DNA of 64,000 nucleotides from Alphaproteobacteria bacterium (GCA_965221125.1 CBDCRW010000007.1:64001-128000), one strand, 5' to 3'; numbered from the stretch's first letter, positions 22,050 to 43,891 are shown. Made by a program: numbers and translations. The notes: generated by a model not told the origin, from the letters alone.

Positions 22050-22110
22050 TCCATCTATTTATCGGCGTTGGCACCCTCCCCTAAGTATTTGTTTTAGAAG
22101 AAAGTTCGTC

Positions 22111-22139
22111 TTGACGCCCGTCTCCAGACGTGTTACACT
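22111..22139 (+). promoter_or_regulatory. Sigma70 promoter of the IS1595 transposase (TTGACG-N17-TACACT)
   Basis: Canonical spacing; followed by an internal IR copy ggtcacaattca (22142-22153) and an AGGAGG RBS. Confidence 0.7.
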
Positions 22140-22165
22140 TCGGTCACAATTCAGGAGGATCGGGG

Positions 22166-26015: not shown

Positions 26016-26842
26016 TGCGGGGCCTGCGCGTCCTGGCCGTCGCGGCGCTCGGCATCGCGCTGGCACCCCTCCCCGTTCCGGCAACGGAACCGCCGCCGAG
26101 CCTGGCGGCGCTGCAGGCGTTGTCACCGGAGAGCGGACCGGATGTGCCCTTCGCGGCGGAGAAACGCGCGTCGGCCGTCCGCCTGGCCGCGCTGGGGTTC
26201 GGCGCGCGCGCGGGCCTCGCGCGGCGCACGTGGGAGATCGCCGCCATGCTGGACCGGCACGGCCCGAAACTCTCCGCGATCTACCGCTTCGGCGATCTCG
26301 TGCTGCGCGACGACGGGTTCACGGTGCTGCCGCCGGTCGTCGCCGAGACCCGCAGGGCCTTCCGGTTGGAACCCGCCGGCACGCGCGCGGCGAGCGCCCG
26401 GCGGGTGCTCAGGATTCTGGAGCCGGAGCGGCTGGTGAGCGCGGCGCCGGACTGGCGCGACTGGCTGGAGCGTTCCTGGCGCCCGGCCCAGCCGCCCGCG
26501 TCAGTGCTGTTTCCGCGCGACGACCGGGAGGAGGCCCGCTGGCGGCGTCTGCTGACCGAAGGCTGGGCCAAGGGCGTGGCCCTGGCCGACGACATCTTTG
26601 CCGCCGACCTCGACCGCCTCAGCCGCACCTTCGAAGGCGTGGTGCTCTGGCACCGGCTCAGCCGCACCGGGATGCTGACCACGCCCGGCATCGAGGTGGA
26701 ACGGGCCGGCGTTTCCGGCCACGAGAGGCTGATGCGGATCGGCGCGGCCTCGGCCCACATCGCCCGCGTCGCCCGCTTCGAACTGGACGCCGGGCGCTGG
26801 GCGCCGCCGCCGAGACCCTCGGGCCGCAGGGGCAGCCGATGA
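26015..26842 (+). CDS. dotC: DotC/TraI-family protein
   Basis: AALGFGARAGL...YRF...VLPPVV...PDWRDWL...W..GV..A; dotDCB gene order. Confidence 0.8.
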   Translation: MRGLRVLAVAALGIALAPLPVPATEPPPSLAALQALSPESGPDVPFAAEKRASAVRLAALGFGARAGLARRTWEIAAMLDRHGPKLSAIYRFGDLVLRDDGFTVLPPVVAETRRAFRLEPAGTRAASARRVLRILEPERLVSAAPDWRDWLERSWRPAQPPASVLFPRDDREEARWRRLLTEGWAKGVALADDIFAADLDRLSRTFEGVVLWHRLSRTGMLTTPGIEVERAGVSGHERLMRIGAASAHIARVARFELDAGRWAPPPRPSGRRGSR

Positions 26843-27978
26843 GCGCGCATCCCCATGAGCGGTGGCCCGAAGCCGCGCACGGCTTCCCGGCGGACAGGCT
26901 CGACGAGTTCCTGCTGTGGGCGGCCGACCGCGGCGCTTCCGACATCGCCTTCCAGACCGGCTCCCCGGCCTTCGTCGAGATCGACGGCGGTTTACAGCGC
27001 GCCACGGCCGCCGCGCTGGACGGCGTGGTCATGGGCAGGCTTTGCGAGCGCCTCTACGACGCAACCGGCGAAGGCATCCTGCGCTCGGGCCGCGCCATCG
27101 ACTGCTCGCACTCGATCACGCTGGCACGTGGGCTCTCGCAACGCTTCCGCTGCAATCTCGCACCGGTCCAGGGCGCTGCAGGCTTCGCGGTCAACATCAC
27201 GCTCCGCGTGCTGCCCGGCAAGCCCCCCACGTTCGCGGAACTGGGGGTCGAGGACGGGATCGTGCGCTCGTGGGAGCTGTGCAAGGGGCTCGTGCTGGTC
27301 ACGGGCGTGCCGGGCTCGGGCAAGTCCACCCTGCTCGCAGCCGGCACGCGCCACCTGCTGGAGCGGGGCGCGGGCCGCATACAGTCCTACGAGGCGCCGA
27401 TCGAGTACGTCTTCGACGGGATTGCCGCTGACGCGGCGCTGATGTCGTCCGCCGAGATACCCCGCCACTTCCCGAGCTTCGCGGACGGCCTGCGCTCCAG
27501 CCTCAGGCGGCGGCCTTCGGCCGTGATCGTGGGCGAGGCGCGCGACCGGGAGACCGTCGAGGCGGTGGTGAAGGCGGCGGACTACGGCATCGCCGTGTTC
27601 TCGACCGCCCACACCATCGGGGTGGCGGCGACGGTGCGCCGCATGCTGGCCGAGTTCCCCGCGCACGAGCGGGCGGAACGGGGCGCCGCGCTGATCGACG
27701 CCATGACGCTGGTGGTGACCCAGGTGCTGCTGCCCAACCCCAAGGGAGGAAGGACAGCGCTCCGCGAATGGCTCGCCTTCGACGCCGGCCTGAAGGCGGA
27801 GCTGCTGGAGAGCCCGCAGGCCAGCTGGCCCGCGAGGATCGCAGCGGCCCTGGCCGCCACCGGCAACGAGCTCGCGGCCGCCGCCCGCAAGGCGCACGCC
27901 CGGGGCCTGATCGTCGACGAAGGACTGCAACGGATCCTCGCCGGCGGCGGTGTACCGAAGCCGAACGAAGGAGATTGA
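26839..27978 (+). CDS. dotB: DotB/TraJ PilT-like ATPase
   Basis: ASDIAFQTG, GVPGSGKST, YEAPIEY, LRRRP..IVGEARD, STAH. Confidence 0.88.
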   Translation: MSAHPHERWPEAAHGFPADRLDEFLLWAADRGASDIAFQTGSPAFVEIDGGLQRATAAALDGVVMGRLCERLYDATGEGILRSGRAIDCSHSITLARGLSQRFRCNLAPVQGAAGFAVNITLRVLPGKPPTFAELGVEDGIVRSWELCKGLVLVTGVPGSGKSTLLAAGTRHLLERGAGRIQSYEAPIEYVFDGIAADAALMSSAEIPRHFPSFADGLRSSLRRRPSAVIVGEARDRETVEAVVKAADYGIAVFSTAHTIGVAATVRRMLAEFPAHERAERGAALIDAMTLVVTQVLLPNPKGGRTALREWLAFDAGLKAELLESPQASWPARIAAALAATGNELAAAARKAHARGLIVDEGLQRILAGGGVPKPNEGD

Positions 27979-28002
27979 GGCGCATGAAGGGGAGATACCG
28001 CG

Positions 28003-28326
28003 ATGGAACCTTCGGAGGGACCGGGGTGTTCTTCGGCCCGAGGGTCCCCTGTGCCAGGGAGTTCCCCTGTGGCGTGGCGGGATTCGATGCGCCCGGTGAG
28101 GGCGTGGGTGTTCGACGCGCGCCTGCTGATCCTGGCGCTGCCGTGGCTGTTCCTGCCGACCTGGTGGACGACGGCAATAGTCGTTGCCGCGATGCTGGCC
28201 TGCCGCGCGGCGGAGGCGCGGGGCTACCGGCTGGCTGCGGCCGTGCGCGCGCTCAGGGCGCTGAGCGCCGGTCGCCGCCGGGCGCTCCATGCCGCCCGCC
28301 TGCGCCGCTTCACGGACTTCGCGTAA
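28003..28326 (+). CDS. icmT: IcmT/TraK-family membrane protein
   Basis: WRDSMRPVRAWVFDAR followed by TM helices. Confidence 0.75.
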   Translation: MEPSEGPGCSSARGSPVPGSSPVAWRDSMRPVRAWVFDARLLILALPWLFLPTWWTTAIVVAAMLACRAAEARGYRLAAAVRALRALSAGRRRALHAARLRRFTDFA

Positions 28327-28838
28327 TGGGCGCATTGCTGGCGATCGCGCTGCTGGCGCTCCCGGCGGCGTCGGCCGGGGCCGGGTTCCGCTACGTGCCC
28401 CCGGCGGAAACCGGCGCCGTGCCGGCGGAGGCAATCGCGAAGTCGCCGCGCGCTGGGGATATCGGGCCTCCGCCCGGTCCCGGCCCGGCTGACCTGGACC
28501 CGAGGGTCACTGGCACGAGTGTCTCCGGCGCGAGCGTCTTGGACCCAAGGGTCTCTGGCGCGAGCGTCTGGCGGGTGCGTGAGGGCGAGATGCTGCGCGC
28601 CGTGCTGGCGCGCTGGGCAGAGCGGGCCGGCACGGACGTCTTGTTCCTGACGGACCGCGGCTACCGGCTGGACGGCGACGCGGCTTTCGAGGGCGGGCTC
28701 GCGGATGCGGTGCAGGCGCTGTTCCGAAGCCTGTCGCATCTCCCGCGCGCCCCGGTGGCCGCACGATCCGAGGGCGGCACGACGCTCGTCGTGAGGCACC
28801 GGATGCCCGCATCGCCGATAGGCGGAGGCAAACCATGA
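28326..28838 (+). CDS. TcpQ-domain protein
   Basis: Signal peptide; W.V..GEMLRAVLARWAERAG...Y.LDG.AAFEG. Confidence 0.65.
   Translation: MGALLAIALLALPAASAGAGFRYVPPAETGAVPAEAIAKSPRAGDIGPPPGPGPADLDPRVTGTSVSGASVLDPRVSGASVWRVREGEMLRAVLARWAERAGTDVLFLTDRGYRLDGDAAFEGGLADAVQALFRSLSHLPRAPVAARSEGGTTLVVRHRMPASPIGGGKP
28497..28571 (+). repeat. Five tandem 15-bp mini-hairpin units, in frame (DPRVT GTSVS GASVL DPRVS GASVW)
   Basis: gacccgagggtcact ggcacgagtgtctcc ggcgcgagcgtcttg gacccaagggtctct ggcgcgagcgtctgg. Confidence 0.9.
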
Positions 28839-29848
28839 AGGTGGCAACGAACGGCGCGCGCCGCGCGGCGACGCGACTGCGGCTGCTTGCGGCAGCGTTG
28901 GCGGTCGGGGCCGCGATTGCGGCGGCATCAAGTGGAGCCGGGGCTGGGAGCGGGGCGGACCTGCAGTCCCAGGGTCTCCGGCCCGAGGGTCTCCGGGCCG
29001 AGGCTCTGGTGTCGGCGTTGCGCGCCAACGGGGCGGAGATCGTCCCCCTGGGCGCGCGCGGCGGGATGAACGGCTACTTCGTCACGCCGGCGAAGAGTAC
29101 GGGCTACAGCCTGTACGTCACGGAAGACGGCCATGCGGTCGCAGGTCTGCTCTACGGGCCGGACGGAATGGAGATCACCGGCGCTCAGCTCGCCGCGGTG
29201 CGGGCGGGGGACGCCGGTGCGGGCTCGGGCGGCGCCGCCGCGCATAATGAATCGGCGACCCCGGCGGCAGTTGTCGTCGCCCATGCCGAACATGGGAGCT
29301 TCGTCCGTCCGGTCTCTTCGCCTTCCCTCGCGGAACTGTTCGAGCGCAGCACCGCCGCCTTCGGGTTCACCCTCGGCAAGCGCGGCCCCTTGGTGGTGCT
29401 GCTCGGAGACCCGACCTGTTCGTTCTCGCGCTCGGCCGCCGCCAGGCTGGGGCGTGCGGCACTCGACGGACACCTTCAACTGCGGGTAGTGCCGGTGGCG
29501 GTCCTCGGCGCGGACGCCGCACGCCGGGCTGTCGCGATCGCCGCGCACCCCGAGCCGGCTCGGGCCTGGTTCGAGGGCGGCGGAGCGGCCGACGCCACCG
29601 GTGCAGAACGCATTGCCCGCAACAACGCCATCTTCGATGCGTGGGGTGCCACGGCCGTGCCGCTTATCGCCTGGCGAACGCTGGGCGGCGCGGTCGGGCA
29701 CCGGATCGGCGACATCGACGACGTGGACGTCTGGCTCCGGGAGACCCTCGGGCCGAGGACTCTCGGGCCGGAGACACTCGTGCCGGACACCCTCAGGGCG
29801 GGAGAGCCTCGGCCCCGAGACCCTCGGGCCGGTGACGGTCATGAGTAG
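28835..29848 (+). CDS. DsbC/DsbG-like thioredoxin-fold protein (TrbB-like)
   Basis: N-terminal GMNGYFV...LYVTEDGHAVAG; active site DPTCSFS; ATAVP cis-Pro loop. Confidence 0.65.
   Translation: MKVATNGARRAATRLRLLAAALAVGAAIAAASSGAGAGSGADLQSQGLRPEGLRAEALVSALRANGAEIVPLGARGGMNGYFVTPAKSTGYSLYVTEDGHAVAGLLYGPDGMEITGAQLAAVRAGDAGAGSGGAAAHNESATPAAVVVAHAEHGSFVRPVSSPSLAELFERSTAAFGFTLGKRGPLVVLLGDPTCSFSRSAAARLGRAALDGHLQLRVVPVAVLGADAARRAVAIAAHPEPARAWFEGGGAADATGAERIARNNAIFDAWGATAVPLIAWRTLGGAVGHRIGDIDDVDVWLRETLGPRTLGPETLVPDTLRAGEPRPRDPRAGDGHE
28965..29009 (+). repeat. Three tandem 15-bp mini-hairpin units
   Basis: agtcccagggtctcc ggcccgagggtctcc gggccgaggctctgg. Confidence 0.85.
29740..29830 (-). repeat. Six tandem 15-bp mini-hairpin units in reverse orientation (one extra base at 29800)
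   Basis: ggagaccctcgggcc gaggactctcgggcc ggagacactcgtgcc ggacaccctcagggc g ggagagcctcggccc cgagaccctcgggcc. Confidence 0.9.
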
Positions 29849-30482
29849 CCGCCTGCAGGCCGTGCGCGCGGCGACCCAAAGGTTTGCGTTCCACCGCGAC
29901 CAGCACCACGGCTGGCGCATGGCGGCGGCTTGGCTGCTGGTCTGCAACGTGCTCACCGCCTGCGCATTCGCAGGCTACGTCTGGATGCACTCCACCGTCT
30001 ACATCGCTGTCGCCGCGACGCCCGACGGACGGCTTGTGCGCCTCACGCCGCTCGACGAGCCGATCATGTCCGACGCGGCGCTCAGGAACTGGACCGTCTC
30101 GGCCGTGACCGAGGCCTTCACCCTGGGTCACCACGACTGGCGGCTCCGGCTCGCCGGCATCCGTGAGTACTTTTCCGACGACGGCTACGAGTCCTTCCTG
30201 AAAGGTCTCGAGGAAAGCCTGTTTCTCGACCGCCTCCGCGACAACCTCCAGGTGGCCTCGGCGGTGGCGCAGGGCGCGCCGGTGATCGTGGACACGCGCT
30301 TCTATGGCGCGCGCGTCGGCTGGGCCGTCGAGTTTCCCATCCTGGTCACCTTCTCTGCCGGCACGCGGCGGGTGAGCCAGGAGCTGGTGGCCCAGGTGCT
30401 GGTGATGCGGGTGCCGCTCGACGAGCGCCCCGCCGGCATCGCCATCGAGCAGCTCATCGCCGGAAAGGGGGGCGCGTCATGA
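29841..30482 (+). CDS. icmL: DotI/IcmL/TraM-family protein
   Basis: TM helix then ATPDGRLVRLTPLDEP..SDAALRNW...F.DDGYESF. Confidence 0.85.
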   Translation: MSSRLQAVRAATQRFAFHRDQHHGWRMAAAWLLVCNVLTACAFAGYVWMHSTVYIAVAATPDGRLVRLTPLDEPIMSDAALRNWTVSAVTEAFTLGHHDWRLRLAGIREYFSDDGYESFLKGLEESLFLDRLRDNLQVASAVAQGAPVIVDTRFYGARVGWAVEFPILVTFSAGTRRVSQELVAQVLVMRVPLDERPAGIAIEQLIAGKGGAS

Positions 30483-31501
30483 GGATGACGGGAGTGCTGT
30501 CGGTTGCGTTGGCGGTGGTCGCGTCGAGCGCCGCGGGATTGTCGGTCGCGGCACAGGACGGCCCGAAGGCCGGCGGCGCACCGGCCGCCCCACTGGAGCG
30601 AGCGACGGACGTGTGGTCCGCCTATGCGCTCACCGAGGACGAGGCGGCGCGGCAGGGCCGGGCGGCACTCCCCTTCACGCCGGAGCAAATCGAGGCGCTG
30701 GGTCGCATCCTGCGCGAGACCCAGGCAGCCACCGCACGCGGCCACGGCGAGCCGCCCCAGGGGCGGGTGCGGCGCATCCGCCTCGATAACGGCGCGATCG
30801 CCGGCACGAGTGTCTCCGGCACAAGTGTCTCCGGCACGAGTGTCCCGGAGATCGCGCTCCGGCGCGGCTACGTCACCGCGGTGTCCTTCACGGACTCGAC
30901 CGGGGCGCCCTGGCCCATCGAGGAGGCGCTGGTGGACCGCCGCTTCCTGCCCCCTGGGGCGGACAGCGACGTCGAGGACGAAGGGTCCCAAAGCAGCCAT
31001 CTGCTCTATCTCGCACCGCAGGCCGCGTATCTCGCCGGCAACGCGGTGGTGAAGCTCCGGGGCCTCGCAGAGCCCGTGGTCGCCAGCCTGCGCGGCACCG
31101 GCGCCGACGCCGACTTCCGGGTCGAGATCCGACTGGGTGTTCCCGGACCGAATACCGATCCGGGCGCGCTGGCGCAGCCTGCCGGGTTCCATGCCGGCGA
31201 TGCGGTGCTGCTCGCGCTGCTCGGCGGCACGGTGCCGCCGGACGCTGAGCGCCTCGCCGTCGAAGGCGGCGCGAGCGGCGACCGGGCGTGGCGCAGGGGC
31301 GGTGAGGTGCTGCTGCTGACCCGCACCCACCTGCTCTCGCCCGGCCCCCTCGCGGCCGAGCGAGGACCGGGCGGGCGCTGGGCCTACCGCCTCGCAGCCA
31401 CCCCCCTAGTGCTGGTGAGCGACGGAGGCATGGAGAAGCGGCTCGCTTTCGCAGATGGCGGAACGGCTGTGCGGTGGCGGGAGGCAGGCGATGAGAACTG
31501 A
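30479..31501 (+). CDS. icmK: DotH/IcmK/TraN-family protein
   Basis: LPFTPEQI, GYVTAVSFTDSTGAPWPI, GNAVVKLRGL, GPN. Confidence 0.85.
   Translation: MRMTGVLSVALAVVASSAAGLSVAAQDGPKAGGAPAAPLERATDVWSAYALTEDEAARQGRAALPFTPEQIEALGRILRETQAATARGHGEPPQGRVRRIRLDNGAIAGTSVSGTSVSGTSVPEIALRRGYVTAVSFTDSTGAPWPIEEALVDRRFLPPGADSDVEDEGSQSSHLLYLAPQAAYLAGNAVVKLRGLAEPVVASLRGTGADADFRVEIRLGVPGPNTDPGALAQPAGFHAGDAVLLALLGGTVPPDAERLAVEGGASGDRAWRRGGEVLLLTRTHLLSPGPLAAERGPGGRWAYRLAATPLVLVSDGGMEKRLAFADGGTAVRWREAGDEN
30803..30847 (+). repeat. Three tandem 15-bp mini-hairpin units (GTSVS GTSVS GTSVP)
   Basis: ggcacgagtgtctcc ggcacaagtgtctcc ggcacgagtgtcccg. Confidence 0.9.
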
Positions 31502-32621
31502 AGCAAATTACACGGCGTGGCCGCTCCGCGCGCTGCCCGCCATATATATAAGTGTCGCGGTTGCGGTCCTCTCGGCGGGGGGCTTCCCGTGTGCGGCCCT
31601 GGCTCAAGTCCCGGATAACCGGGACCTCAAGCTCGATCCCGAGGACAGCGTGCCGCCGTTCTACCGGGAGACGCTGGACGAGCGCGACCGCCAGCGCCTC
31701 GACGCGGCGCGCGAGGCAGGCGAGACCTACCTGCCCACGTTCCAGGGTGCGTCGACGGCGGGCGACGGGGAGACGGTGCAGGCCGCCGAGGCGCCGACCA
31801 GGCCGCAGCTCGCATACGAGGGTTACCGCCGTCCGGCAACCGCCGCGCCTCGCGCCTCCGGCCGTGAAGGGCAGGCCGCAGGCGATCCCCGGTCCGATGG
31901 TCGCGGACCCGAGGGTCTGGTCGGCGTGCTGATCGAGGCCTGGACGCGGCAGCCCGAGATCGCGCGCCTGCGCTATCCGGCAGCGGCCCGCGATTCCGGC
32001 TCGGCTTCACGAGGAGGCATTTCCGGAGAACCCTCGGGCCAGGACGCGCGGGCCATCACACCGCCCTTACCGCACGTCCCTGCCGGGACCGGGCTCTACG
32101 CCCGTGCCATGTACGCCGTCGACTCCGACTACCCCGGCCCGGTGCTGCTGGAGATCCTGGAGCCGCCGCTCGCGGGTGCCGTCGCTTCCGGCGCGTTCAC
32201 CCTCATCGGCGAGCGGTTGACGCTGCGGCTGAGCCGCCTGGAGTACCGGGGCCGGAGCTTCGGTGTCGACGCCTGGGCGGCCGGGCTCGACTGCGCCTGC
32301 TACGGCGTGGACGGCGAGGTCGACAGCCACTGGTTCGAACGCGTGCTGCTGCCGGCCTCCGTGCGCTTCGCCGAGGGCTTGCTGACCGCCCTGTCACGGC
32401 CGCGCGAGACCGTCATCGTCGGCGACGGGCTACGCTACGAGCGCCTGGAGGCCTCGACCCGGGAAGCGGTCCATGCGGGACTCGCCACGGCGGCGCGCAC
32501 CGCCGGCGACGTGCTGCTCGAGAACGCGCCCGACGGGCCCAGCGTGCGCATCCCCCGCGACACCGAGCTGGTCGTGGTGTTCGCCGCGCAGCCGGACCGG
32601 GGGGATCGGCCCGATGGCTGA
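31491..32621 (+). CDS. icmE: DotG/IcmE/TraO (VirB10/TrbI-like), short form
   Basis: AVDSDYPGPVL...GEVDSHWFERVLLPA..RFAEG. Confidence 0.78.
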   Translation: MRTEANYTAWPLRALPAIYISVAVAVLSAGGFPCAALAQVPDNRDLKLDPEDSVPPFYRETLDERDRQRLDAAREAGETYLPTFQGASTAGDGETVQAAEAPTRPQLAYEGYRRPATAAPRASGREGQAAGDPRSDGRGPEGLVGVLIEAWTRQPEIARLRYPAAARDSGSASRGGISGEPSGQDARAITPPLPHVPAGTGLYARAMYAVDSDYPGPVLLEILEPPLAGAVASGAFTLIGERLTLRLSRLEYRGRSFGVDAWAAGLDCACYGVDGEVDSHWFERVLLPASVRFAEGLLTALSRPRETVIVGDGLRYERLEASTREAVHAGLATAARTAGDVLLENAPDGPSVRIPRDTELVVVFAAQPDRGDRPDG

Positions 32622-33171
32622 ATCGAACGACCTCGGCCAGGCCATGATCTCGCTGGTGCGCGACCTCGAGCCCGCGATGCTGATCCTGGTCACGGTCGTC
32701 TGCTACCTGCTCGCGCTGATGGCGCTGGCCCAGGGGCTGCTGCGCCTGCTCAAGACCTCCGAGGACAAGTTCCACGCGCCGTCCGCCGGCGGCACGGCGC
32801 TCTGCTTCCTGATCTGCATCGTCCTCGCGGCCCTTCCCTCCTGGCTCGACGCCACGACCGAGAGCCTGTTCGGCACGGCGAGCCCGCCCGGCACCGCGAG
32901 CCTGGGCTACAGGGGATCACCCTGGTCCGGCGGCCGCGGCGCGGACTACGAGGCGCTGCTGGCCGCCGTCTTCGCCCTGGTCGCGCTGGTCGGGCTGTTC
33001 GCCTTCATCCGGGGCGCCTTCGTGCTCCGCGCCGCCGCCGACGCGCGTCCCGGCGCGAGCGGCGCCCGCGCCTTCGCCCACATGGTCGGCGGCATCGCTG
33101 CCTGGCACCTCGGCGCCGTCATCGACGCGCTTCAGACCAGCCTCGGCATCGAGGTGCTGAGCATCGGTTGA
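32614..33171 (+). CDS. IcmC/DotE/TraQ-like membrane protein
   Basis: Four TM helices; VGLFAFIRG...HMVGG; position in the cluster. Confidence 0.55.
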   Translation: MAESNDLGQAMISLVRDLEPAMLILVTVVCYLLALMALAQGLLRLLKTSEDKFHAPSAGGTALCFLICIVLAALPSWLDATTESLFGTASPPGTASLGYRGSPWSGGRGADYEALLAAVFALVALVGLFAFIRGAFVLRAAADARPGASGARAFAHMVGGIAAWHLGAVIDALQTSLGIEVLSIG

Positions 33172-33199
33172 TGCCGGGCATCCGTCGAAAGGACGTCAC

Positions 33200-33649
33200 A
33201 TGAACATCACAACCATCGCAGGAACGGTTCGGCGCATTCTGCTGGAGTTGAAGAGTCCGCACGCATGGCATCCACGCGCGGTGCCGGCGGGTCCCGCCAC
33301 TGCCGCTTTGGTGGGTGCGGCCTGGGTCTGCGGCACGAGTGTCTGGGCGTGCGGCCCGGCGCTGGCCGTCTCGCTCGGCGACATGGCCGACGAGGCGGCG
33401 GACGACCTGGAGACGGTGCCGGGGCTGATCGCAATCGCCTTCTACATCATCGGCGCCGCCATCGTCGGCTTCGGCCTGCTGAAGCTCAAGCGTCACGTCG
33501 ACCATCCCCAGCAGACCACCATCGGTAGCGGGCTGATCGCCATCCTGATCGGCGTCGCGCTGATCGCCGCGCCCGCCGTCATCAACGCCCTCGGCGCGAC
33601 CTTCGGGGTCGACGCCGGGAACCAGACAGTCCTCAAGCCGAGGCTGTAG
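33200..33649 (+). CDS. Pilin-like membrane protein (IcmD/TraR-like)
   Basis: YIIGAAIVGFGLLKLKRHVDHPQQ...ILIGVALIAAP. Confidence 0.55.
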   Translation: MNITTIAGTVRRILLELKSPHAWHPRAVPAGPATAALVGAAWVCGTSVWACGPALAVSLGDMADEAADDLETVPGLIAIAFYIIGAAIVGFGLLKLKRHVDHPQQTTIGSGLIAILIGVALIAAPAVINALGATFGVDAGNQTVLKPRL

Positions 33650-33669
33650 GACAGGCGGAGCCTCAAGCC

Positions 33670-36600
33670 ATGCCGCTCTCGCTCGCCGCAGCCGCCGACG
33701 ACCTCCAGCGCCTCAGCTGGACGCTGCGCCGCAAGCCGCTTGAGAGTTTCCTGGCGCCGCAGGCGGCCGTGCCGCTGGAGGGCGGCGGCGGCGTCCTGAT
33801 CTGCCACGACGGCTCCCTGGTCTCGCTGCTGGCGCTCGACGGGTCGCGCTCGATGATGGGCGCGGAAGAGCTCGACCGCTTCGTGGACCTCGCCGCGCTC
33901 CGGCTCAACACCGCCTTCGCCCATCCCGGCCATGCGCTCCACGTCGTCTTCGAGCGCGCCCCCGACGAGGCGCACACGCTTGCGGCCGGACACGGACAGG
34001 CTGTGGGCAGGCAAGCCGCCCGGCTCGGACTGGACCTCGATGACCTGCTGGCCGAGCGGGCACGGCGCCTGACCCCGCTCATCGCCGCCGAAACCCTCGT
34101 CATCGCCTGCTGGACGCGGCCCTCCGTGCTGCCGCGCGACCGCCTGGAGCGCGACCGCAAGGGGCTGCGCAGGAAGCTCCGGGACTGGCTGCCCGCCGCC
34201 GGCGAGGCGCAATGCCCCCACCTCGCGCTCGAAGGGCTGTGGGCGCGCCACGAGGCGCTGCTCGACGCGCTAGCGTCCGTGCTGACCGAGACCGGGATCG
34301 AAGGCCGCAGACTGCGCGAAGATCAGGCGCTACGGCTCATGCGGCGCATGGTGAACGGCACGGCGTCCACGGCGCCGGACTGGCGCCCGGTCACCGTGGC
34401 CAACGACGCGCCAGCGCGCCTGACCGAGCCTCCGGAGACCGGCGCCTTCCCGCCGCCGCTCAGCACCCAGCTCCTGGTCCGCGAGCCCGAGCGGAGCGGC
34501 GGCGGCGTCCGCATCGGCGCACGCCTCTACGGCGCTCTCGACATGAGCCTCGGACCCAGGCGCTCGCGCCCCTTCGCCGAGCTGATGGCGGGGCTCGCCG
34601 CCGCCGGTCTTCCCTGCCGCTTCTCGCTGCTGATCGAGGGCGGCGGCCTGCATCGCCTCGACGCCACCATGGCGCGCGTCGCCTCCTCCTTCCTAGCCTT
34701 CTCGTCCTCCGACAGCCTGCTCGCGCGGAACGCGCTGCGCGACCTCGCGGCGCTCGGCGGCGACGCGCATGCCATCGTGCGCCTCCGCCTCGGCCTCTTG
34801 ACCTGGGTCGGAGGGGAAGACGGCGAGGCGGCACTGGCCGCCCGTCTCGGACGCCTGCAGCAGGTGGCCGAGGGCTGGGGCGAGGCGGTGTTCACCCCGC
34901 TCACGGGCGACTCGCTGGAAAGCCTCGCCGCCTCCGTCCCCGGCTTCTGTTGCGGGGCAACCGCGCAACCCGCCCTCGCGCCGCTCTCCGAGGCCCTGCG
35001 GCTCTTTCCGGTCGGCCGCCCGGCGCCCCTCTCGCGTCTCTCGACCGAGGCGGGCGGCGCGCACCTGTTCCGCTCGCCCGACGGCAAGCCGCTGCCGCTG
35101 GCGGCCGACGAAGGCGGCGACTACGGCTTCGAGCTGATCTACGGCCTGCCCGGACAGGGCAAGTCGGTGCTGATGAACGCCCTCGGCCTCGCGTTCTGCC
35201 TGCAAAGCGGGCAGACACGCCTGCCGCTGGCCGCCGTGATCGACATCGGCCCCTCCTCTTCCGGGCTGGTCTCCCTGGTGCGGGAGGCGCTGCCGGCCGA
35301 GCGCCGGCACGAGGCCGGCTGGTTCCCGCTCCGGATGACCTCCGAACACGCCATCAACCCCTGCGACACCCAGCTCGGCTGCCGCGGCCCGCTCCCGGCC
35401 GAGCGCGCCTTCCTGACCAACCTGCTGGGCCTCATGGTGACGCCCGCCGGGGACGCGGGCGTGCCCGACGGCATGCGCGAGCTGCTCGGGCCGGCGCTCA
35501 CCGGCGCCTACGCCATGCGCTCGGACAAGGTGGCGGGCGCCGAACCCCACGACTACACGGAAGGCCGCGACGAAGACGTGGATGCCGCGATCGCGGAGGC
35601 CGGACTCCGCCTGCCCGAGTCTCCGCTCTGGTGGGACGTGGTCGACCTGCTGTTCGAAGCGGGCGAGATCGAGGCGGCGGCCAGGGCGCAGCGCTACGCG
35701 GTGCCCACCCTCGTGGATCTGCTGGCCTCGGTGCGTGAGCCCGCCGTGCAGGGGCTGGTGGGGGACGCGCGGTACGGCTCGGGCGGCGAGACCGTCACCC
35801 AGGCCTTCATCCGCATCCTCACGGCGCTCTCGGGCGACTGGCCGGTGATGTTCTCTCCCACCGCCTTCGATGTCGGCGGCGCGCGCCTCGCCGCCATCGA
35901 CCTCTCCGAGGTGGCGCCGCAGGGCTCGGCCGAGGCGGACCGCCAGTCGGCCGCCTTCTACCTGCTCGCGCGCCACGCGCTGACACGCCACTGGTGGATC
36001 GGCGAGGACGCACTGGCGTCCATTCCCGAACCCTACCGGGACTGGCACGCATCCCGGCTCCGCGACATTCGCGAATCGCCCAAGCGGCTCTGCTACGACG
36101 AGTTCCACCGCACCGCCGGCGCGCCCGCCGTCCGCGTTCAGGTGGAACGCGACGTGCGCGAGGCCAGGAAGCTGCGGGTGCGGCTCGCACTGGCCTCGCA
36201 GCGCCTGGAGGATTTCGGCGGCACGCTCGCCGAGCTCGCCAACCGCTACTGGATCCTGGGAAGCGGCGGCAAGGCGAAGGAAGCGCAAGCGCTCGCCGCC
36301 ACGTTCTCCCTCACGGACACGCTCTCGGACGCGATCCGCTACCGCCTCACCGGACCTGGCCGCGACGGGGCGCCGGCGCTGCTGATCGCGAGCGGCCAGG
36401 GCGGGCGCTTCGAGCAGCTGGTCGTCAACACGCCGGGGCCGATCGAGCTCTGGGCGCTCACCACCAGCCCGGCGGACGTCGCGCTCAGGCGGCGGCTCTA
36501 CGCGCTGCTGCCGCCGGACCGTGCAAGGGCGGCGCTCGCCAGGGCGTTCCCGGAGGGCACGGCGCGAAGCCGTATCGAGCGCGAGCTCGCTCGCATGGAT

Positions 36601-36714
36601 TCGCCGGAGGCCGGGCGCGCCGCGTCCGAGGAGGCGGTGCTCGACCGCCTCGCCGACGAGGTCGCGCGGGCCGCCGGCAACGAGCCATCCCAATCAGCCG
36701 ATAACGCAACCTGA
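33670..36714 (+). CDS. icmB: IcmB/DotO/TraU VirB4-like ATPase
   Basis: LFRSPDGK, GLPGQGKS, IDIGPSSSG, INPCDTQLGCR, CYDEFHR, GPIELWALTT. Confidence 0.9.
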   Translation: MPLSLAAAADDLQRLSWTLRRKPLESFLAPQAAVPLEGGGGVLICHDGSLVSLLALDGSRSMMGAEELDRFVDLAALRLNTAFAHPGHALHVVFERAPDEAHTLAAGHGQAVGRQAARLGLDLDDLLAERARRLTPLIAAETLVIACWTRPSVLPRDRLERDRKGLRRKLRDWLPAAGEAQCPHLALEGLWARHEALLDALASVLTETGIEGRRLREDQALRLMRRMVNGTASTAPDWRPVTVANDAPARLTEPPETGAFPPPLSTQLLVREPERSGGGVRIGARLYGALDMSLGPRRSRPFAELMAGLAAAGLPCRFSLLIEGGGLHRLDATMARVASSFLAFSSSDSLLARNALRDLAALGGDAHAIVRLRLGLLTWVGGEDGEAALAARLGRLQQVAEGWGEAVFTPLTGDSLESLAASVPGFCCGATAQPALAPLSEALRLFPVGRPAPLSRLSTEAGGAHLFRSPDGKPLPLAADEGGDYGFELIYGLPGQGKSVLMNALGLAFCLQSGQTRLPLAAVIDIGPSSSGLVSLVREALPAERRHEAGWFPLRMTSEHAINPCDTQLGCRGPLPAERAFLTNLLGLMVTPAGDAGVPDGMRELLGPALTGAYAMRSDKVAGAEPHDYTEGRDEDVDAAIAEAGLRLPESPLWWDVVDLLFEAGEIEAAARAQRYAVPTLVDLLASVREPAVQGLVGDARYGSGGETVTQAFIRILTALSGDWPVMFSPTAFDVGGARLAAIDLSEVAPQGSAEADRQSAAFYLLARHALTRHWWIGEDALASIPEPYRDWHASRLRDIRESPKRLCYDEFHRTAGAPAVRVQVERDVREARKLRVRLALASQRLEDFGGTLAELANRYWILGSGGKAKEAQALAATFSLTDTLSDAIRYRLTGPGRDGAPALLIASGQGGRFEQLVVNTPGPIELWALTTSPADVALRRRLYALLPPDRARAALARAFPEGTARSRIERELARMDSPEAGRAASEEAVLDRLADEVARAAGNEPSQSADNAT

Positions 36715-36727
36715 GAGGAGGAAGCAC

Positions 36728-37135
36728 ATGCTGCACGTCAACAGGGCGACGGTGCTGGGCTACGCGGGAGGCGACGCCAAGCGCCGCACCATGCAGAGCG
36801 GCGAGGACACGGTCTCGTTCAGCGTCGCCACCACGCGGCGCTGGAAGGGCGATGACGGGAACCCGCAGGAGGCCACGGAGTGGCACCGGGTCGCGGTCTT
36901 CGGCGGCTCGGTCGAGCCCGTGTCGGAGATGGTCCGCAAGGGCGTGCTGGTCTTGGTCGAGGGCCGGCTCAGAACCCGCGAATACCAGGACAGGGAGTGC
37001 AAGGACCGCACGGTCACCGAGATCGTGGTCGCCGGGCCGCAGAGCATGATCAACGTACTGTCGCCAAAGCCGGCGACGGACAGGCCGGCCGAAGCCGGGG
37101 ATTCCGGGGCGGAAGGCGGCGATGCGGCGGCGTAG
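36728..37135 (+). CDS. ssb: Single-stranded DNA-binding protein (no acidic DDIPF tail)
   Basis: VNRATVLG...FSVAT...TEWHRV..F...VEGRLRTR. Confidence 0.9.
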   Translation: MLHVNRATVLGYAGGDAKRRTMQSGEDTVSFSVATTRRWKGDDGNPQEATEWHRVAVFGGSVEPVSEMVRKGVLVLVEGRLRTREYQDRECKDRTVTEIVVAGPQSMINVLSPKPATDRPAEAGDSGAEGGDAAA

Positions 37136-37697
37136 CGCCTGGGCGTTCGCCGCGGCGCTGACGCTCGCGGTGTGGGCGGCGCCGGCCGGGGCGGAGGCGC
37201 AGCCTCCCGCTCCCGCCGCGTCCGGAGGTGTGCCGGGCGATGCGGTCGCGCCCGATCCCGCGGGCCACGCTGACGCGTGCGATCCGGCGGTGGCGGAGGC
37301 GCTGGCGAGGAGCGCGGAGGCCGGCGTCGAGGCCGACCTCTCGATCATCCGCCATCCCGACCAGGGCATACGCAACCCGGACTCGATCCTCGACTTCTCC
37401 TGCATCACCGACCTGTTCGACTACCGCTCCTTCGACATCCACTTCGATCCGGCGGGCGCGCTCGAGTACATCCTGGATCTCGCCCGCCGCCGCATCTGCG
37501 CCGCCGCCCGCGACGCCTACCGGCGCTATGTCGGCCGCGCCCTCGACCCTTCGGTCTACGTCTCGGAATACACCCGGCCTCTCGACCGCCTTCCCGGCCT
37601 CGATATCGACTGGCCGAGGCGCAACGTCTTCGATGACCTCGGGGCGGGCGACGCGGGCAGCGAGCTGTTCCGGGGCGTCGTCGGGGGCGGCCAATGA
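37122..37697 (+). CDS. Secreted hypothetical conjugation-associated protein
   Basis: Signal peptide, Cys residues, overlaps both neighbouring genes. Confidence 0.6.
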   Translation: MRRRSAWAFAAALTLAVWAAPAGAEAQPPAPAASGGVPGDAVAPDPAGHADACDPAVAEALARSAEAGVEADLSIIRHPDQGIRNPDSILDFSCITDLFDYRSFDIHFDPAGALEYILDLARRRICAAARDAYRRYVGRALDPSVYVSEYTRPLDRLPGLDIDWPRRNVFDDLGAGDAGSELFRGVVGGGQ

Positions 37698-38914
37698 GTA
37701 TCCGAAGGATGCCCCTCCGTGTTGTGGTCTTCGGGAAGACAGGGGACCTGCTGCCGGCCGCCGCGCTGCTTGCCGCAGTGCTTTCGGCCGGGGCGATGCT
37801 GATGCCGACCGCGGCGCACGCCCACAAGTGCGACCGCACCGACAACGACCGGCGCGAGGCGAGTCGCGTCATCGCGGACCTCACCGGCGAGATCGACGCC
37901 ATGGAGCGGGCCATCATCGAGGCGCTGCGTCTGCAGACCGGCCAGCTCTCGGGCTACATCGCCCAGAGCGCCAAGGCCGTGACCGGAGCCCTCGACTCGC
38001 AGACGAAGCTGCAGGCGCAGACTGCGCGCGAGGTGGCCGAGACCGGGACCATGATGGCGCACCGGCCCAGCCGGAGCGCCTGCGAGGCGGTCACGGGGCT
38101 GAGGGGCCTCGCGGCCACCGGCGCCGCGGCAAAGGACGCGCACGGGCGTGCGGCCGCGACCGAGACGGGCCGCATCACGGGCGACCGCGCGGTGGTGGAC
38201 CGGCCGGGGGCCGCCGCCGGCGATGCGGCGCGCTTCGAGAGCGTCACGCGGGAATACTGCAACGCAGGCCGCGCCGGCGAGGGCACTCGTGCCGGAGACC
38301 CGGAGCTCTCCGGCACGAGTGTCTGCCGGGGCGGGCACGCCATGCACGGCGCGGACCTGCACGCCGGCACCCTGTTCGAGCGCCGCACCTTCGCAAGCGA
38401 GGACGAGCTGCGGGCTGCCGTAGAGCTCTCGCGCAACCTCGCAGCGCCCGTGGTGCACGACCCGCCGCCGCTCGGCTCGGCCGATACCGACCGGGAGCGC
38501 CGCCGCGCGCTGCTGGCTCGGGCGGCGGACGCGCGGATGGCGCTCGCCGCCGACTACATGGCGCAGGCCCGGGCGCTCAGGGCGCCGGGCGCCGCGCTCG
38601 GCGAATGGGCCGCGGCGGTCGCACCCGGCGCGGGCCGCGATCCCGCGACCCCCGTCAGCCGCTATGAGCTTCTTGAGCTGCTGGCGAGCGGCCGTTTCGA
38701 GGACCCGCACTGGTTCGTGCGCCTGCAGGCGATATCGGCAGAGAACCTGCTGCGCGAGCTGGTGACGCTGCAGGCGGTCTCGCTCATGCTCGACTGGCAG
38801 CGCTACCGCACCGACGAGCGGCGCGGCGCGATCGACGCGGCATCGCTCGCGTTGGCCACGGAGGAGATGCGCCGCCTCCCCGGCCTCGCCAACCCGGCCG
38901 CCGGGGCCAACTGA
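37694..38914 (+). CDS. Secreted conjugation protein (IcmX/TraW-like position and character)
   Basis: Signal peptide, helical, RF.DP.W...L..LLREL; lies upstream of dotA. Confidence 0.55.
   Translation: MSIRRMPLRVVVFGKTGDLLPAAALLAAVLSAGAMLMPTAAHAHKCDRTDNDRREASRVIADLTGEIDAMERAIIEALRLQTGQLSGYIAQSAKAVTGALDSQTKLQAQTAREVAETGTMMAHRPSRSACEAVTGLRGLAATGAAAKDAHGRAAATETGRITGDRAVVDRPGAAAGDAARFESVTREYCNAGRAGEGTRAGDPELSGTSVCRGGHAMHGADLHAGTLFERRTFASEDELRAAVELSRNLAAPVVHDPPPLGSADTDRERRRALLARAADARMALAADYMAQARALRAPGAALGEWAAAVAPGAGRDPATPVSRYELLELLASGRFEDPHWFVRLQAISAENLLRELVTLQAVSLMLDWQRYRTDERRGAIDAASLALATEEMRRLPGLANPAAGAN
38279..38326. repeat. Inverted pair of 15-bp units forming a long in-frame hairpin
   Basis: ggcactcgtgccggaga-cccggagc-tctccggcacgagtgtc. 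Confidence 0.85.
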
Positions 38915-38918
38915 GGCG

Positions 38919-41219
38919 ATGCGCCTGCTCCGTTTCCTGTTCGCGCCCGAGCTCGGTCGCCCGCTTGCCGAAGCCCTGCGATCGGCGGCTGTGCTGCGGA
39001 CGCTGATCGAGGCGGTGCGCCGGCCACCGCCGCCTGCCGGGTCGTGCATCGGGGACGGCGGCAAGGCCGAGGGCGGCGGCAAGGCCAGCGATCCCGGTGA
39101 CGCGGTTGCGAGTCGTCGTGTGGCGGCCAAAACGGGGAGCCGAGGCTCGCCCTCTCCGGCCTCAGGCTTCCGTCCCGGCCTCCTCTGGCTGGTCCTGCTG
39201 CTCGCGCTCACCGGTCTCGTCCTGGCCGCCGTGCCCCCGCCCGATCCGGCCGCCGCGCAGTTCATCGAGCGCGGCCTCTTCGCCGACACTGACGGTGCGA
39301 CGCGCGAGGTCCTGGCTTTCCTCGGCGGGCTGGGCGCTAACGGGCCGTCCGCCGTGGGCGACATGCTGTTCGCCTTCAACGCCGGCGTCCTGGTGCTTGC
39401 CGGGTTCCTGCTCATCTGGCACGCCGCCGCCGGCACCGTGGATACCGCGCGGGAAGGCCGCTTCGGCTTCGGCGCCTGGGCGATCGTGCGCATCGTCACC
39501 GCCGTTGCCCTGATGGCGCCGCTGCCGGGCGGGCTGAACGGGGCGCAGCACGCGGTGGTGGGCCTCGCCCATCTTGGCGGCGACTTCGCCAACGCCGTCT
39601 GGAAGCCGTTCTCCGAGGAAGCCTTTTCGGAGAGCCGCCCCATCGTGCCGCGCCCCCGCGAGGCGCTCTGGCGGGCGGCGATCGCGCGCACGCTGCTCGC
39701 CGAGACCTGCGCCAGGACGGCCAACCAGAGCGCGGCGCAGGCGGGCGACGACGCCTATGTGGAGATCGACGACCACGAGGACGACGGCACGCTGACCTTC
39801 AGCTATGACGGTGAGGACCGGGGCATGCCGGACAGGATGTGCGGCAGCATCCGGTTCTCCGGCCTCGACGCCGATGGCGCTCCCGGCATGGCGGCCGAGG
39901 GGCACCGCCAGGCGCTCACCGCGCTCATGCCGCCAATCCGCAGTATCGCCGGCCGCCTCGCAGCCCACTACGTCGCCGGCACTCCGGTCTACGGCCGGCC
40001 GCTCCCGGACATCGACGGACTGCTGGCGGCGGAGGATCTGGCGGGCGCCTACGCGCGCGTGCTCGACGGCGCGCTCACGCAGGCCGCCTCGGAGGAGCGC
40101 GAGACGCTGGCGCGGGTGGTGGCAGAGGACGCGCGCGAGGCCTCCTGGCTGGCGGCGGCCTCCTTCTTCAACACCATCGCCCACCGCGTCGGCCTCTTCC
40201 AGGCCGCCGCCCACAACGTGCCCTCGGTGGCGCTGCCCACGCCGAGCCTCGACGAGTGGGTCCCTGCGGCGGACGCAGCCGTGAAGGGGGTGGCGGCCCA
40301 GCTCGCCCGCTCGCCCCGCTACCACCCGATGCTGCTGTCCGCCGCCGACGCCGGCGCGGGCGCGCTGCCCGCGTCGGGGGACGGTGACGGCGGCATGGTC
40401 TCCGGCCTGCTGGAGTTCATCGACCTGGACTCCGTCATCGTCGCCGACAGCGGCAATCCCATCGCCGACCTCGCCGCACTCGGCCACGGGCTGCTCAACG
40501 CCGCGCTCACCGCCGTTGCCGCGCTGATGGGTGCCGCCACCGGCTCCGGGCTGCTGGAATCCATTCCCTTCATCGGCAAGGGACTCGACGTCTTCGAGTC
40601 CGCCTGGCAGGTCTCCGACGCCCTAGTCTCGACCCTGCTCGGGCTGCTCGTCATCGCGGGCGCGGTGCTGGCCTACGTGCTGCCCGCGCTTCCCTTCATC
40701 CGCTTCCTGTTCGGCATCCTCGGCTGGATTCTGAACGTGGCGATCGCGGTGCTGGCCGTCACCGTGTTCGCCGCCGCCCACGTCACCCGCGAGGACGGGG
40801 ACCGGCTCACCGTCCAGGCCACCCGCCAGGGCTGGCTGTTCCTGCCCGCGCTGGTGCTGCGGCCCGCGCTGATGCTTCTGGGGCTCATCCTCGGCTACTT
40901 CGTGTTCCTCGCGAGTATCGGGCTGTTCAACCAGGTGTGGCTGCCGCAGATGCGCGACGCCGGGGTCTCCGGCGGGCTCGGGCCGGTGGGCTTCCTCGCC
41001 ATGCTCGCGCTCTACGTGATCGTCGCCTACGGGCTGATGAACGCCGCCTTCAAGCTGATCGACCTGCTTCCCTCCGCCGTCCTCGACTGGATTGGCGGGC
41101 GCGCAGGCGCGGGCGACGACGGGGGCGAGCGGGCCGGGGGAACGGCGGTGGCGGGGTTCTCGCGCCTGAGCGCGGTCCGCGTCGGCGCCCGCACCCGGCG
41201 CGGCGGGACCGGGAGCTGA
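38919..41219 (+). CDS. dotA: DotA/TraY-family membrane protein
   Basis: FNAGVL...VDTAREG...IVRIV...GLNGAQ; LAYVLPALPFI...LRPALM...LPSAVLDWIG. Confidence 0.88.
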   Translation: MRLLRFLFAPELGRPLAEALRSAAVLRTLIEAVRRPPPPAGSCIGDGGKAEGGGKASDPGDAVASRRVAAKTGSRGSPSPASGFRPGLLWLVLLLALTGLVLAAVPPPDPAAAQFIERGLFADTDGATREVLAFLGGLGANGPSAVGDMLFAFNAGVLVLAGFLLIWHAAAGTVDTAREGRFGFGAWAIVRIVTAVALMAPLPGGLNGAQHAVVGLAHLGGDFANAVWKPFSEEAFSESRPIVPRPREALWRAAIARTLLAETCARTANQSAAQAGDDAYVEIDDHEDDGTLTFSYDGEDRGMPDRMCGSIRFSGLDADGAPGMAAEGHRQALTALMPPIRSIAGRLAAHYVAGTPVYGRPLPDIDGLLAAEDLAGAYARVLDGALTQAASEERETLARVVAEDAREASWLAAASFFNTIAHRVGLFQAAAHNVPSVALPTPSLDEWVPAADAAVKGVAAQLARSPRYHPMLLSAADAGAGALPASGDGDGGMVSGLLEFIDLDSVIVADSGNPIADLAALGHGLLNAALTAVAALMGAATGSGLLESIPFIGKGLDVFESAWQVSDALVSTLLGLLVIAGAVLAYVLPALPFIRFLFGILGWILNVAIAVLAVTVFAAAHVTREDGDRLTVQATRQGWLFLPALVLRPALMLLGLILGYFVFLASIGLFNQVWLPQMRDAGVSGGLGPVGFLAMLALYVIVAYGLMNAAFKLIDLLPSAVLDWIGGRAGAGDDGGERAGGTAVAGFSRLSAVRVGARTRRGGTGS

Positions 41220-41262
41220 CCGTGCCCGCACCGCGTGCCCATGAACTCGGAGGAGCGTGGAC

Positions 41263-43841: not shown

Positions 43842-43891
43842 CGCTGACGGATGCAAGAACGCGGAGAATCTACGAAACGGAAGGAATTGGA

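Follow-up and report, generated by a model that had tools for sequence, protein, structure and literature searches.

A truncated conjugation cluster in the genome of an alphaproteobacterium (GCA_965221125.1) carries, inside its genes, a short quasi-palindromic repeat of which 25 units of 15 bp were found in the 64,000-nucleotide stretch analysed here (CBDCRW010000007.1, positions 64001-128000; hereafter the window, with coordinates counted from its first nucleotide). The cluster, on the plus strand at ~24.8-45.4 kb, is of the mating-pair-formation type I (MPF-I; Dot/Icm-type, IncI-like), and all of the units lie within 26811-39151, 16 of them on the plus strand and 9 on the minus strand. Each consists of a 12-bp quasi-palindrome (consensus GGCNC-GA-GNGTC; pattern GGCNCGAGNGTC) followed by ~3 nt, usually TCC. 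Orthologous conjugative elements elsewhere in this uncultured alphaproteobacterial genus are also full of the unit, at differing sites and in differing copy numbers. The reading that we prefer, with about an even chance of being right (~0.5), is that the units form a dispersed quasi-palindromic coding minisatellite, spread locally by replication slippage and microhomology template switching and then filtered by selection.

Repeat units in the window

Pattern GGCNCGAGNGTC matches the window 14 times, as compared with 0.77 ± 0.93 matches expected from 100 dinucleotide-preserving shuffles of the window, none of which reached 14. All 14 matches fall within 26814-38323, and the N/N pair is Watson-Crick in 13 of them. 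The original prediction, made from the sequence of the window, had described 25 units in nine conjugation genes and had proposed a comparison with shuffled sequence; every one of these units was found where it had been placed, the count of nine genes was confirmed, and the motif is enriched by this comparison. A looser pattern, G[AG]NNCGAGNN[TC]C with three pairs required, has 184 matches in the 4.58-Mb genome, 18 of which are in a single 20-kb bin (window 16-36 kb), with no more than 4 in any other bin listed. The exact consensus 15-mer is present in only five copies genome-wide, all five in this conjugation cluster. The clustering in one 20-kb bin and the local position of all five exact 15-mers rule out a genome-wide repeat of the HIP1 or REP (repetitive extragenic palindromic) kind. 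The original prediction had seen no units in the ATPase cores or in the chromosomal part of the window; the ATPase cores do lack them, and so does the remainder of the genome.

Contigs from three sequencing runs cover 28300-30092 with zero differences; these runs are of one sample and so not independent of each other, and their agreement indicates that the arrays in this interval are not an error of this one assembly. An assembly artefact is ruled out by these contigs spanning the arrays, together with the many independent genomes that carry the unit. A joint that 'goes back 44' at 30845>30802, seen in three runs of one sample, may represent a longer array or another locus. A megablast search of the cluster against plasmids gave no match, and a full-text literature search (supplementary files not covered) yielded no description of such units in conjugation genes.

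All 25 units are intragenic, and seven of the nine host genes have family matches or orthologs. Their positions are as follows.

26811..26825, minus strand: single unit, with core GGCCCGAGGGTC on that strand, read RPSGR
28035-28049, plus strand: 15-bp unit, with a different palindromic 18-mer, CCAGGGAGTTCCCCTGT, at 28047-28070; N-terminus of the IcmT/TraK gene (28003-28326)
28497..28571, plus strand: array of five units, read DPRVT GTSVS GASVL DPRVS GASVW; TcpQ-like gene (28329-28838)
28965..29009, plus strand: array of three units, the first degenerate, read (Q)GLR PEGLR AEAL; DsbG-like protein (28835-29848)
29740..29830, minus strand: array of six units; C-terminal tail of the DsbG-like protein
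30803..30847, plus strand: array of three units, read GTSVS GTSVS GTSVP; loop of DotH/IcmK (30479-31501)
31906..31920, plus strand: single unit, GACCCGAGGGTC, read PEGL; linker of TraO/DotG (31455-32621)
32025..32040, minus strand: single 16-nt unit, GGCCCGAGGGTTCTCC as written on that strand; TraO/DotG linker, upstream of the conserved C-terminal domain
33332..33346, plus strand: single unit, read GTSV; gene for a DUF6750 protein (33200-33649)
38279-38293 (minus strand) and 38312-38326 (plus strand): two inverted units; TraW-like gene (37694-38914)
39137..39151, plus strand: single variant unit, GAGCCGAGGCTC; near the N-terminus of DotA/TraY (38919-41219)

Several of the initial gene assignments had to be revised. 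Frame plots and orthologs put the DotB start codon at 26839, so the 26811 unit is not inside DotB, as had been proposed, but in the C-terminal tail of an unnamed upstream open reading frame (ORF) that ends at 26842 (ATGA overlap), 14 nt before the DotB start. The unit at 28035-28049, read as ARGSP, was reassigned to the small IcmT/TraK gene; the 18-mer next to it is of a type common in a sister element clade. The start of the TcpQ-like gene was corrected to 28329 from frame plots and ortholog comparison, so its five units lie between the signal peptide and the TcpQ domain. In the DsbG-like protein, the array at 28965-29009 follows directly after the signal peptide, and the array at 29740-29830 stops just short of the DotI start near 29841. 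The unit at 29785-29800 is 16 nt long and changes the frame of those that remain, so that the first four units of this second array are read as ETLGP-type peptides and the last two as DPRAG-type peptides; the predicted 15-bp length has exceptions here and at 32025-32040. The frame shift at 29785-29800 is old rather than a sequencing error, since the DsbG-like tail GEPRPRDPRAGDGHE is common to the window and to L015, one of the orthologous loci. The inverted pair at 38279-38326 makes up a near-perfect 42-nt palindrome.

The repeated object is DNA and not peptide, as the original prediction held. One and the same unit is translated as GTSVS, PEGLR, ARGSP, ETLGP/ETLVP, DTRAG/DPRAG or RPSGR, that is, in at least five reading frames and into unrelated peptides, which rules out a peptide-level motif; the unit is free of stop codons in all six frames. 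Orientation is likewise free: in ten loci of known operon direction, 48 units are sense and 63 antisense, with no bias. The wider tally of 110 same-sense and 131 opposite units is a rough one, as it depends on approximate gene and frame calls from the GC content of third codon positions (GC3), which misassign some units (e.g. 29743). Among neighbouring pairs on the same strand, 72 are spaced by 15 nt and 13 by 30 nt, and tandem neighbours are of the identical variant in 52 of 69 cases (48.5% expected), as local duplication would give. Solitary units number 94, with another 149 in arrays. The solitary ones keep TCTCC upstream (e.g. C at -3 in 81 of 94), which is part of a neighbouring unit, so that the copying extended over more than one unit length.

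Related elements and sister families

Of 41 related genomes, 14 have a DotH ortholog. The unit variants recur, with 6-25 loose matches per locus, in nine 17-kb loci with a DotH at least 72% identical to that of the window; eleven loci of more distant elements have a chance-like 1-3 loose matches each. Across 21 genomes of the genus, GGCNCGAGNGTCTCC has 186 matches, clustered in the element loci, compared with 8 for the reversed control. In the complete relative G003, the IncI-like thin-pilus genes PilN, PilQ, PilS and PilV also carry units, and the units stay within the mating-pair-formation (pil and tra) block, which spans ~12 kb in the window and ~29 kb in this relative. By gene family, the density is 3.9 units per kb for the DsbG-like protein, 2.4 for the TcpQ-like protein, 1.8 for the PilQ ATPase, 0.9 for TraO and 0.8 for DotH.

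Copy numbers and sites change faster than the flanking sequence. The DotH loop that holds three units in the window holds two, one or none in its orthologs, and the linker of the TcpQ-like protein has from 0 to 6. The DsbG-like protein has at least five unit sites across the elements, located in the linkers at the N-terminus and between the domains, in two loops of the conserved domain and in the C-terminal tail. Its DNA alignment shows a clean insertion of 45 nt (three units) in L015 relative to L014 and a clean insertion of 15 nt in L014 relative to L013; in both cases the target sequence was already similar to a portion of the unit (GAC, CCGG). Because orthologs carry differing numbers of units at differing sites, the unit is an indel in loops, linkers and tails. 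The alignment of orthologs, which the original prediction had suggested as a way of recognising insertions, shows the units of DotH, the TcpQ-like protein and the DsbG-like protein to be in-frame indels. The junctions inspected, three or four in number and from elements of 70-90% identity, lie in unit-like target sequence, and the possible microhomology at them is suggestive only.

A sister clade, which includes a second MPF-I element in this same genome, has different 15- and 18-bp palindromic in-frame repeats. The second element is located on contig C4 at ~1.083-1.112 Mb (loci L081 and L082), and its DotH is 59% identical to that of the window. It has 18 arrays of 15- or 18-bp units, for example CAGGGGAACGCCCCGGTC in 5.7 copies and GGTGCCTCCACCCGGAGG in 4.3 copies, and none of the 15-mers of the window. 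Neither of the two co-resident elements carries the main family of the other, with the sole exception of the one 18-mer copy at 28047-28070. The sister 18-mers include CAGGG-GAACT-CCCTG+GTA and CACCC-CTTC-GGGTG+..., and the sister 15-mers include CTGTCTGAGACAGTT and CTGCC-CGA-GGCAG+TC; their stems are 5-6 bp long, with loops of 4-5 nt. Pair-preserving variants exist in these other families as well (CAGGG/CCCTG, CAAGG/CCTTG, CAGCG/CGCTG, CACCC/GGGTG, CATCC/GGATG). In L015, a 33-bp composite of the 15-bp unit fused to an 18-bp unit of CCAGGGAGTTC type is repeated four times at 13961-14071, in the ortholog of the IcmT/TraK N-terminus, so the 15- and 18-bp families can amplify together.

Arrays of period 15 or 18 number 22 in the 55.6 kb of the two elements, as opposed to 158 in the remaining 4.52 Mb of the genome. 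A stem of at least 5 bp is present in 19 of the 22 element arrays, in 62 of the 158 arrays elsewhere and in 35% of shuffled consensus units. Outside the two elements, a few more hairpin-type arrays were noted, in two other TrwC relaxase genes, in a Tad-pilus ORF and at the N-termini of two transporters. The relaxase genes, at C5:91,541-94,852 and C7:279,001-283,356 (L077 and L078), hold 18-mers of GGGGAACGCCCTGG type in one case and the 15-mer AGGTGGTACACCGCC in the other, which shows that relaxase genes, in other elements, can accommodate repeats of this kind. At C4:1,032,612-1,032,793 (L080), the 15-bp unit GCCTGTCCGGGCTGC is repeated 10.7 times with a 99% match, close to the N-terminal end of an ORF that encodes RcpC/CpaB and T2SSF (Tad pilus) domains.

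Such repeats do not appear to be a general property of MPF-I systems. They were not seen in the Methylorubrum extorquens AM1 megaplasmid or in a Roseomonas mucosa plasmid (DotO ~35-37% identical); both of these high-GC outgroup plasmids have only weak, non-recurring arrays of period 15 or 18 and none of the units described here. The SbcD component of the hairpin nuclease SbcCD was above the cut-off in none of the 41 relatives, inside and outside the genus alike, so loss of SbcCD does not discriminate as a genus-specific cause.

Origin of the units

The paired positions of the unit co-vary, as the original prediction had noticed. Pattern GGNNCGAGNNTC has 314 matches in 337 kb of element loci. 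At positions 4/9, these comprise 155 A-T, 95 C-G, 9 G-C and 3 T-A pairs, the commonest mismatch being A.G with 16, so that 262 of the 314 (83%) are Watson-Crick as compared with 95 of 306 (31%) background matches elsewhere in the genome; at positions 3/10, the corresponding values are 87% and 24%. The pair types kept are C-G and G-C at 3/10 and G.T, G-C and A-T at 2/11. When 30 distinct variants are counted once each, 89.3% of cells are paired, versus 81.1 ± 2.1% after shuffling (none of 500 shuffles reached the observed value) and 13-51% when the partner columns are slid out of register; the set of 30 was in part chosen by hand, with 27 taken from the 58 distinct 12-mers, two from the units of the window and one from L036, a choice that could favour the consensus. 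The signal comes largely from two amplified 'master' variants, and there are still at least 4-5 pair-preserving types at three stem positions. G1, C5, G6, A7, G8 and C12 are invariant in all 30 variants.

This symmetry translates poorly into folding. As single-stranded DNA (ssDNA), single units have predicted energies of -1.6 and -2.9 kcal/mol (z = +0.8 and +0.4), no better than shuffles, and the five-unit array at 28494-28574 is predicted to fold worse than shuffles (z = +1.4), the predicted array folds skipping the unit stems. Just two stretches stand out: segment 38270-38335, with the inverted pair, reaches -31.3 kcal/mol (z = -6.4), and z is -2.9 and -3.8 for the DotH array plus flanking sequence. 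The 'hairpin' of the original prediction is, for the single unit, a matter of sequence symmetry only. Nor is selection on DNA structure, which had been proposed there, required, because template switching can symmetrise the arms of an inverted repeat without selection, according to the part of the source available to us (PMC8794818).

In the minisatellite reading, replication slippage would grow and shrink the arrays, and new sites would be seeded when a nascent strand switches template, at a microhomology of a few bases, to a unit nearby and then returns. The self-complementary core would let such a switch land on either strand and, because it can anneal to either, both orientations would arise. 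Template switching within a unit would copy one arm from the other and produce apparent compensatory changes without structural selection; such switching has been described in the literature as a source of perfect stems and of multibase 'compensatory' changes, as far as the accessible parts of these papers go (PMC8794818; PMC8604942; PMC7202029). The single-stranded phases of a conjugative element, in rolling-circle replication and transfer, may favour the switches, and a short range, limited to cis, would keep each family local to one element. Selection would act only as a filter, passing units with a length divisible by three and free of stops in six frames, in permissive and probably flexible segments. 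The units may well lack a dedicated function, the variation in linker length being a by-product. Among the three candidate origins named in the original prediction, the third, footprints of an insertion or expansion mechanism like that of the Rickettsia palindromic elements, fits best, while the ssDNA signal and the protein-binding site have been weakened.

Several observations weigh against this reading. Only four inverted pairs within 120 nt were found, and fold-back switching should yield them. Full homogenisation of the arms would erase the G.T at 2/11 and the GA centre, both of which stay asymmetric. The filled and the empty DotH sites differ by a net 12 nt and not 15 nt, so that a second event is needed. 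Neutral spread would be expected to leave copies in intergenic DNA and in the remaining genes of the element as well. No units are present in the type IV coupling protein (T4CP) gene, in 10 tabulated spans and in 5 further copies, nor in the TrwC relaxase (the one full relaxase), the Toprim primase-like protein, the helicase or the topoisomerase III of G003, and the 37 kb flanking the transfer block of G003 contain only a single A/C-type unit; spread would therefore have to be of very short range, or insertions very poorly tolerated in those genes. An element from another bacterial family, with a DotO 73% identical (64-68% in the sister clade), has no such arrays, whereas more distant elements within the genus do, which hints at a host or lineage factor that the template-switch model does not name. 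The covariation itself is consistent with template switching, yet selection could give the same pattern.

It is possible, if unlikely, that the units are double-stranded binding sites of a dimeric protein of the element or host, such as a repressor or silencer of the transfer operon or a ParB/KorB-like protein, and are coding because intergenic space is scarce. Under this explanation, the 12-bp palindromic core with its invariant outer and central positions, the clustering and limitation to the pil/tra block and the indifference to orientation, which a palindromic site predicts, would all be expected, and cognate pairs of protein and site would account for the separate palindromic family of each element clade. 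Half-sites, however, should vary independently, yet mixed units like GGCACGAGGGTC are rare (the 16 A.G cases among 314, against 155 A-T and 95 C-G). The positions and copy numbers are unstable between close relatives (0-6 units), the locations are coding linkers, and in L072 the intergenic DNA at 11.5-11.9 kb, upstream of the relaxase and the one such region examined, contains no unit. Moreover, a spacing of 15 bp sets neighbouring sites on different helical faces, and no candidate binding protein was singled out.

An adaptive explanation, in which the units are kept as rapidly variable flexible linkers of an envelope-spanning transfer machine, in the manner of contingency loci, also appears doubtful. 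Here the spacers would be tuned to the envelope of a new host, or would allow escape from phages that use the pilus or the type IV secretion system (T4SS), and the palindrome would do no more than raise the indel rate. In line with this proposal are the position of the units (linkers, loops and tails of components that are mostly periplasmic or in the membrane, above all the DsbG-like protein at 3.9 per kb), the differences in copy number between close relatives and the richness of the peptides in the used frames in G, P, S, T, E and R. No sign of a benefit was seen, however, and the many frames give unrelated peptides, even Cys-containing ones (RHECLR and RHSCR, if the GC3-based frames are right). 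Cytoplasmic ATPases, too, carry units in their N-terminal extensions, and other units lie in tails that run into the start of the following gene. The AlphaFold model of the DsbG-like protein, built from a 20-sequence alignment, was too poor for a test of disorder (mean pLDDT 39.5) and was left unused. A related proposal, that a palindrome-recognising factor of the genus or of the elements inserts or amplifies the units in cis, which would make the 15- and 18-bp units a new class of ultra-small mobile DNA written into genes and amount to programmed, element-specific diversification of linkers in place of passive replication error, seems to us rather improbable.

A quite small chance attaches to the units acting as hairpins in single-stranded nucleic acid, either in priming or protection of the transferred strand or in the stability, pausing or Rho evasion of mRNA. 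The covariation keeps pairing, including the G.T that pairs on one strand only; a conjugative element does have a single-stranded stage; and the sister families, with their stems of 5-6 bp and loops of 4-5 nt, make more credible hairpins. The strong fold of the inverted pair at 38279-38326 (z = -6.4) points the same way, but the single units (-1.6 to -2.9 kcal/mol, z +0.4 to +0.8) and the 28494-28574 array (z = +1.4) do not, and a loop of 2 nt is sterically unfavourable. The two strands are used without bias (48 versus 63), although G.T turns into A.C on the other strand, and the T4CP gene, the relaxase gene and other examined DNA of the element are without units even though they are transferred too.

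The least probable explanation, which we regard as very improbable, is that a dedicated enzyme, such as an element-encoded HUH relaxase acting on nic-like mini-hairpins or a recombinase, cuts and pastes the units as the smallest of non-autonomous mobile elements. In its favour, the dispersed copies lie in both orientations and share a conserved asymmetric flank, and G003 encodes a TrwC-family relaxase, a family whose members act on a hairpin plus a short single-stranded stretch and catalyse recombination specific to the origin of transfer (oriT). Against it, no unit is present in the putative oriT region upstream of the relaxase (L072 11520-11929), where the hairpins are different ones (GCACA-CC-TGTGC, GCAAGC-TAAC-GCTTGC), PF01797 (Y1/RAYT) was found in none of three genomes searched, the cluster in the window lacks a relaxase, and the failure of families to cross between two co-resident elements argues against a machine acting in trans.

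Hairpins of the NusG/RfaH-type ops kind were considered separately and ruled out, as the NusG-family matches in the three genomes G000, G003 and G011 are all outside the element regions examined.

Known repeats and genomic context

None of the known systems with which we compared the units shares their combination of features, namely a 15-18 bp unit that is both tandem and dispersed, occurs in both orientations and many frames, has pair-preserving variants and is confined to the transfer-machine genes of one lineage. The Rickettsia palindromic elements (RPEs) are similar in being palindromic repeats placed in frame within protein genes, at permissive positions and in more than one frame. RPEs are ~100-150 bp long, form a long stable hairpin, occur genome-wide, including in non-coding DNA, and are not known to form tandem arrays. 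Compared with these by description only, the present units differ in their 15-bp length, marginal fold, direct tandem arrays, confinement to one element and pair-preserving variants. PARCEL repeats, in the part of their description available to us, are intragenic tandem repeats of dyad-symmetric coding DNA with variable copy number, linked to mobile elements and membrane-targeted proteins, for which intragenomic shuffling has been proposed. They encode, however, a 25-residue amphipathic protein motif that is recognisable by hidden Markov models and resides in ORFs of unknown function, whereas the units described here, again by description only, have a 5-residue period, no conserved peptide and a place inside named, conserved T4SS and pilus genes.

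KorB operators, parS sites and iterons are palindromic, ~12-16 bp long, multicopy on one mobile element and lineage-specific, as the units are. Those sites are mainly in promoters, in intergenic DNA or at conserved positions, and have a known cognate protein; the units differ in their unstable positions, their location in coding linkers and their co-varying arms. The ssDNA signals of conjugative plasmids (ssi, Frpo-type) have a long stable hairpin on one defined strand of the leading region, as opposed to the marginal fold, the use of both strands (48 versus 63) and the mating-pair-formation genes seen here. With coding minisatellites, that is, variable-number tandem repeats generated by slippage, the units share head-to-tail arrays, a period divisible by three and differing copy numbers (0-3, 0-6), but coding minisatellites usually have a single locus and orientation, not nine genes, both strands and at least five frames.

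REP sequences and REPINs are likewise short GC-rich palindromes with many copies in both orientations and in inverted pairs (compare 38279-38326), as described in the parts of the sources available (PMC3733652, PMC3184786). According to the same sources, REPs are extragenic, 20-40 bp long, distributed genome-wide and marked by GTAG or CGTC tags; the present units, with their 12-bp core, lie inside genes and only within the element. REPs driven by RAYT transposases are ruled out, because the search for PF01797, negative in G000, G003 and G011, was positive in 6 of 14 reference genomes used as a control. Quasipalindrome mutation by template switching comes close in its arm homogenisation, its perfect stems and its multibase 'compensatory' changes, which are also known from coding sequence (PMC8794818, PMC7202029, PMC8604942). 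In the accessible parts of these papers, the events are single-locus ones, unlike the dispersed, tandemly amplified units at many sites of one mobile element described here.

The conjugation cluster is cut off on its left side at ~24.8 kb. DotB is followed by genes for IcmT/TraK, the TcpQ-like and DsbG-like proteins, DotI, DotH, DotG/TraO, a TraQ-like protein and the DUF6750 protein; no relaxase or pil genes were found within the window. The other main features are listed below.

22130-23146: IS1595 transposase, left of the cluster
25264-25479: TcpQ fragment, left end of the cluster
26839-27978: DotB
33670-36714: 1014-aa ATPase, IcmB/DotO in related plasmids
37694-38914, then 38919-41219: TraW-like gene, followed by DotA/TraY
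41257-43242: T4CP
43592-44125: AlpA-like ORF

To the left of the cluster, window segments 10361-12489 and 18613-23146 contain genes of mobile or defence type, including an N6_N4 DNA methylase, a DUF559 protein and the IS1595 transposase. Also among them is a Mu-type transposase (rve and Mu-transpos_C domains) with an AAA_22/TniB-like ATPase; near this module, GGTTCGAGTCCC at 9755-9766 resembles a tRNA T-arm and might mark an integration site. Two other kinds of short repeat were noted. Tandem arrays of the 10-bp GCCGAGACAA (4-5 copies) are present at window 4426-4466 and 21091-21148, both outside the conjugation cluster, as well as at C3:227698, C5:2698 and C7:172358. The 15-mer pair CGAAGGCGGAGACGA / CGTCGCCACCGCCTT forms an identical short array at no fewer than 14 genome sites (C4:212056, C5:69905, C6:23844, C7:277213 and others), and this array is probably part of a multicopy element.

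The units described here represent an extreme form of intragenic repeat: at 15 bp, and stop-free in six frames, they have spread through no fewer than nine genes of one machine, and other palindromic units with the same habits have evolved in sister clades. They offer a natural system for the study of mutagenesis by template switching and slippage on DNA that repeatedly becomes single-stranded, and call for caution in the use of covariation methods, as pair-preserving changes need not mean a selected structure. The filled sites also map where the proteins of Dot/Icm and IncI-type pilus systems tolerate insertions. If the units were instead to prove protein-binding or structural signals, they would constitute a new kind of cis-element hidden in coding sequence.

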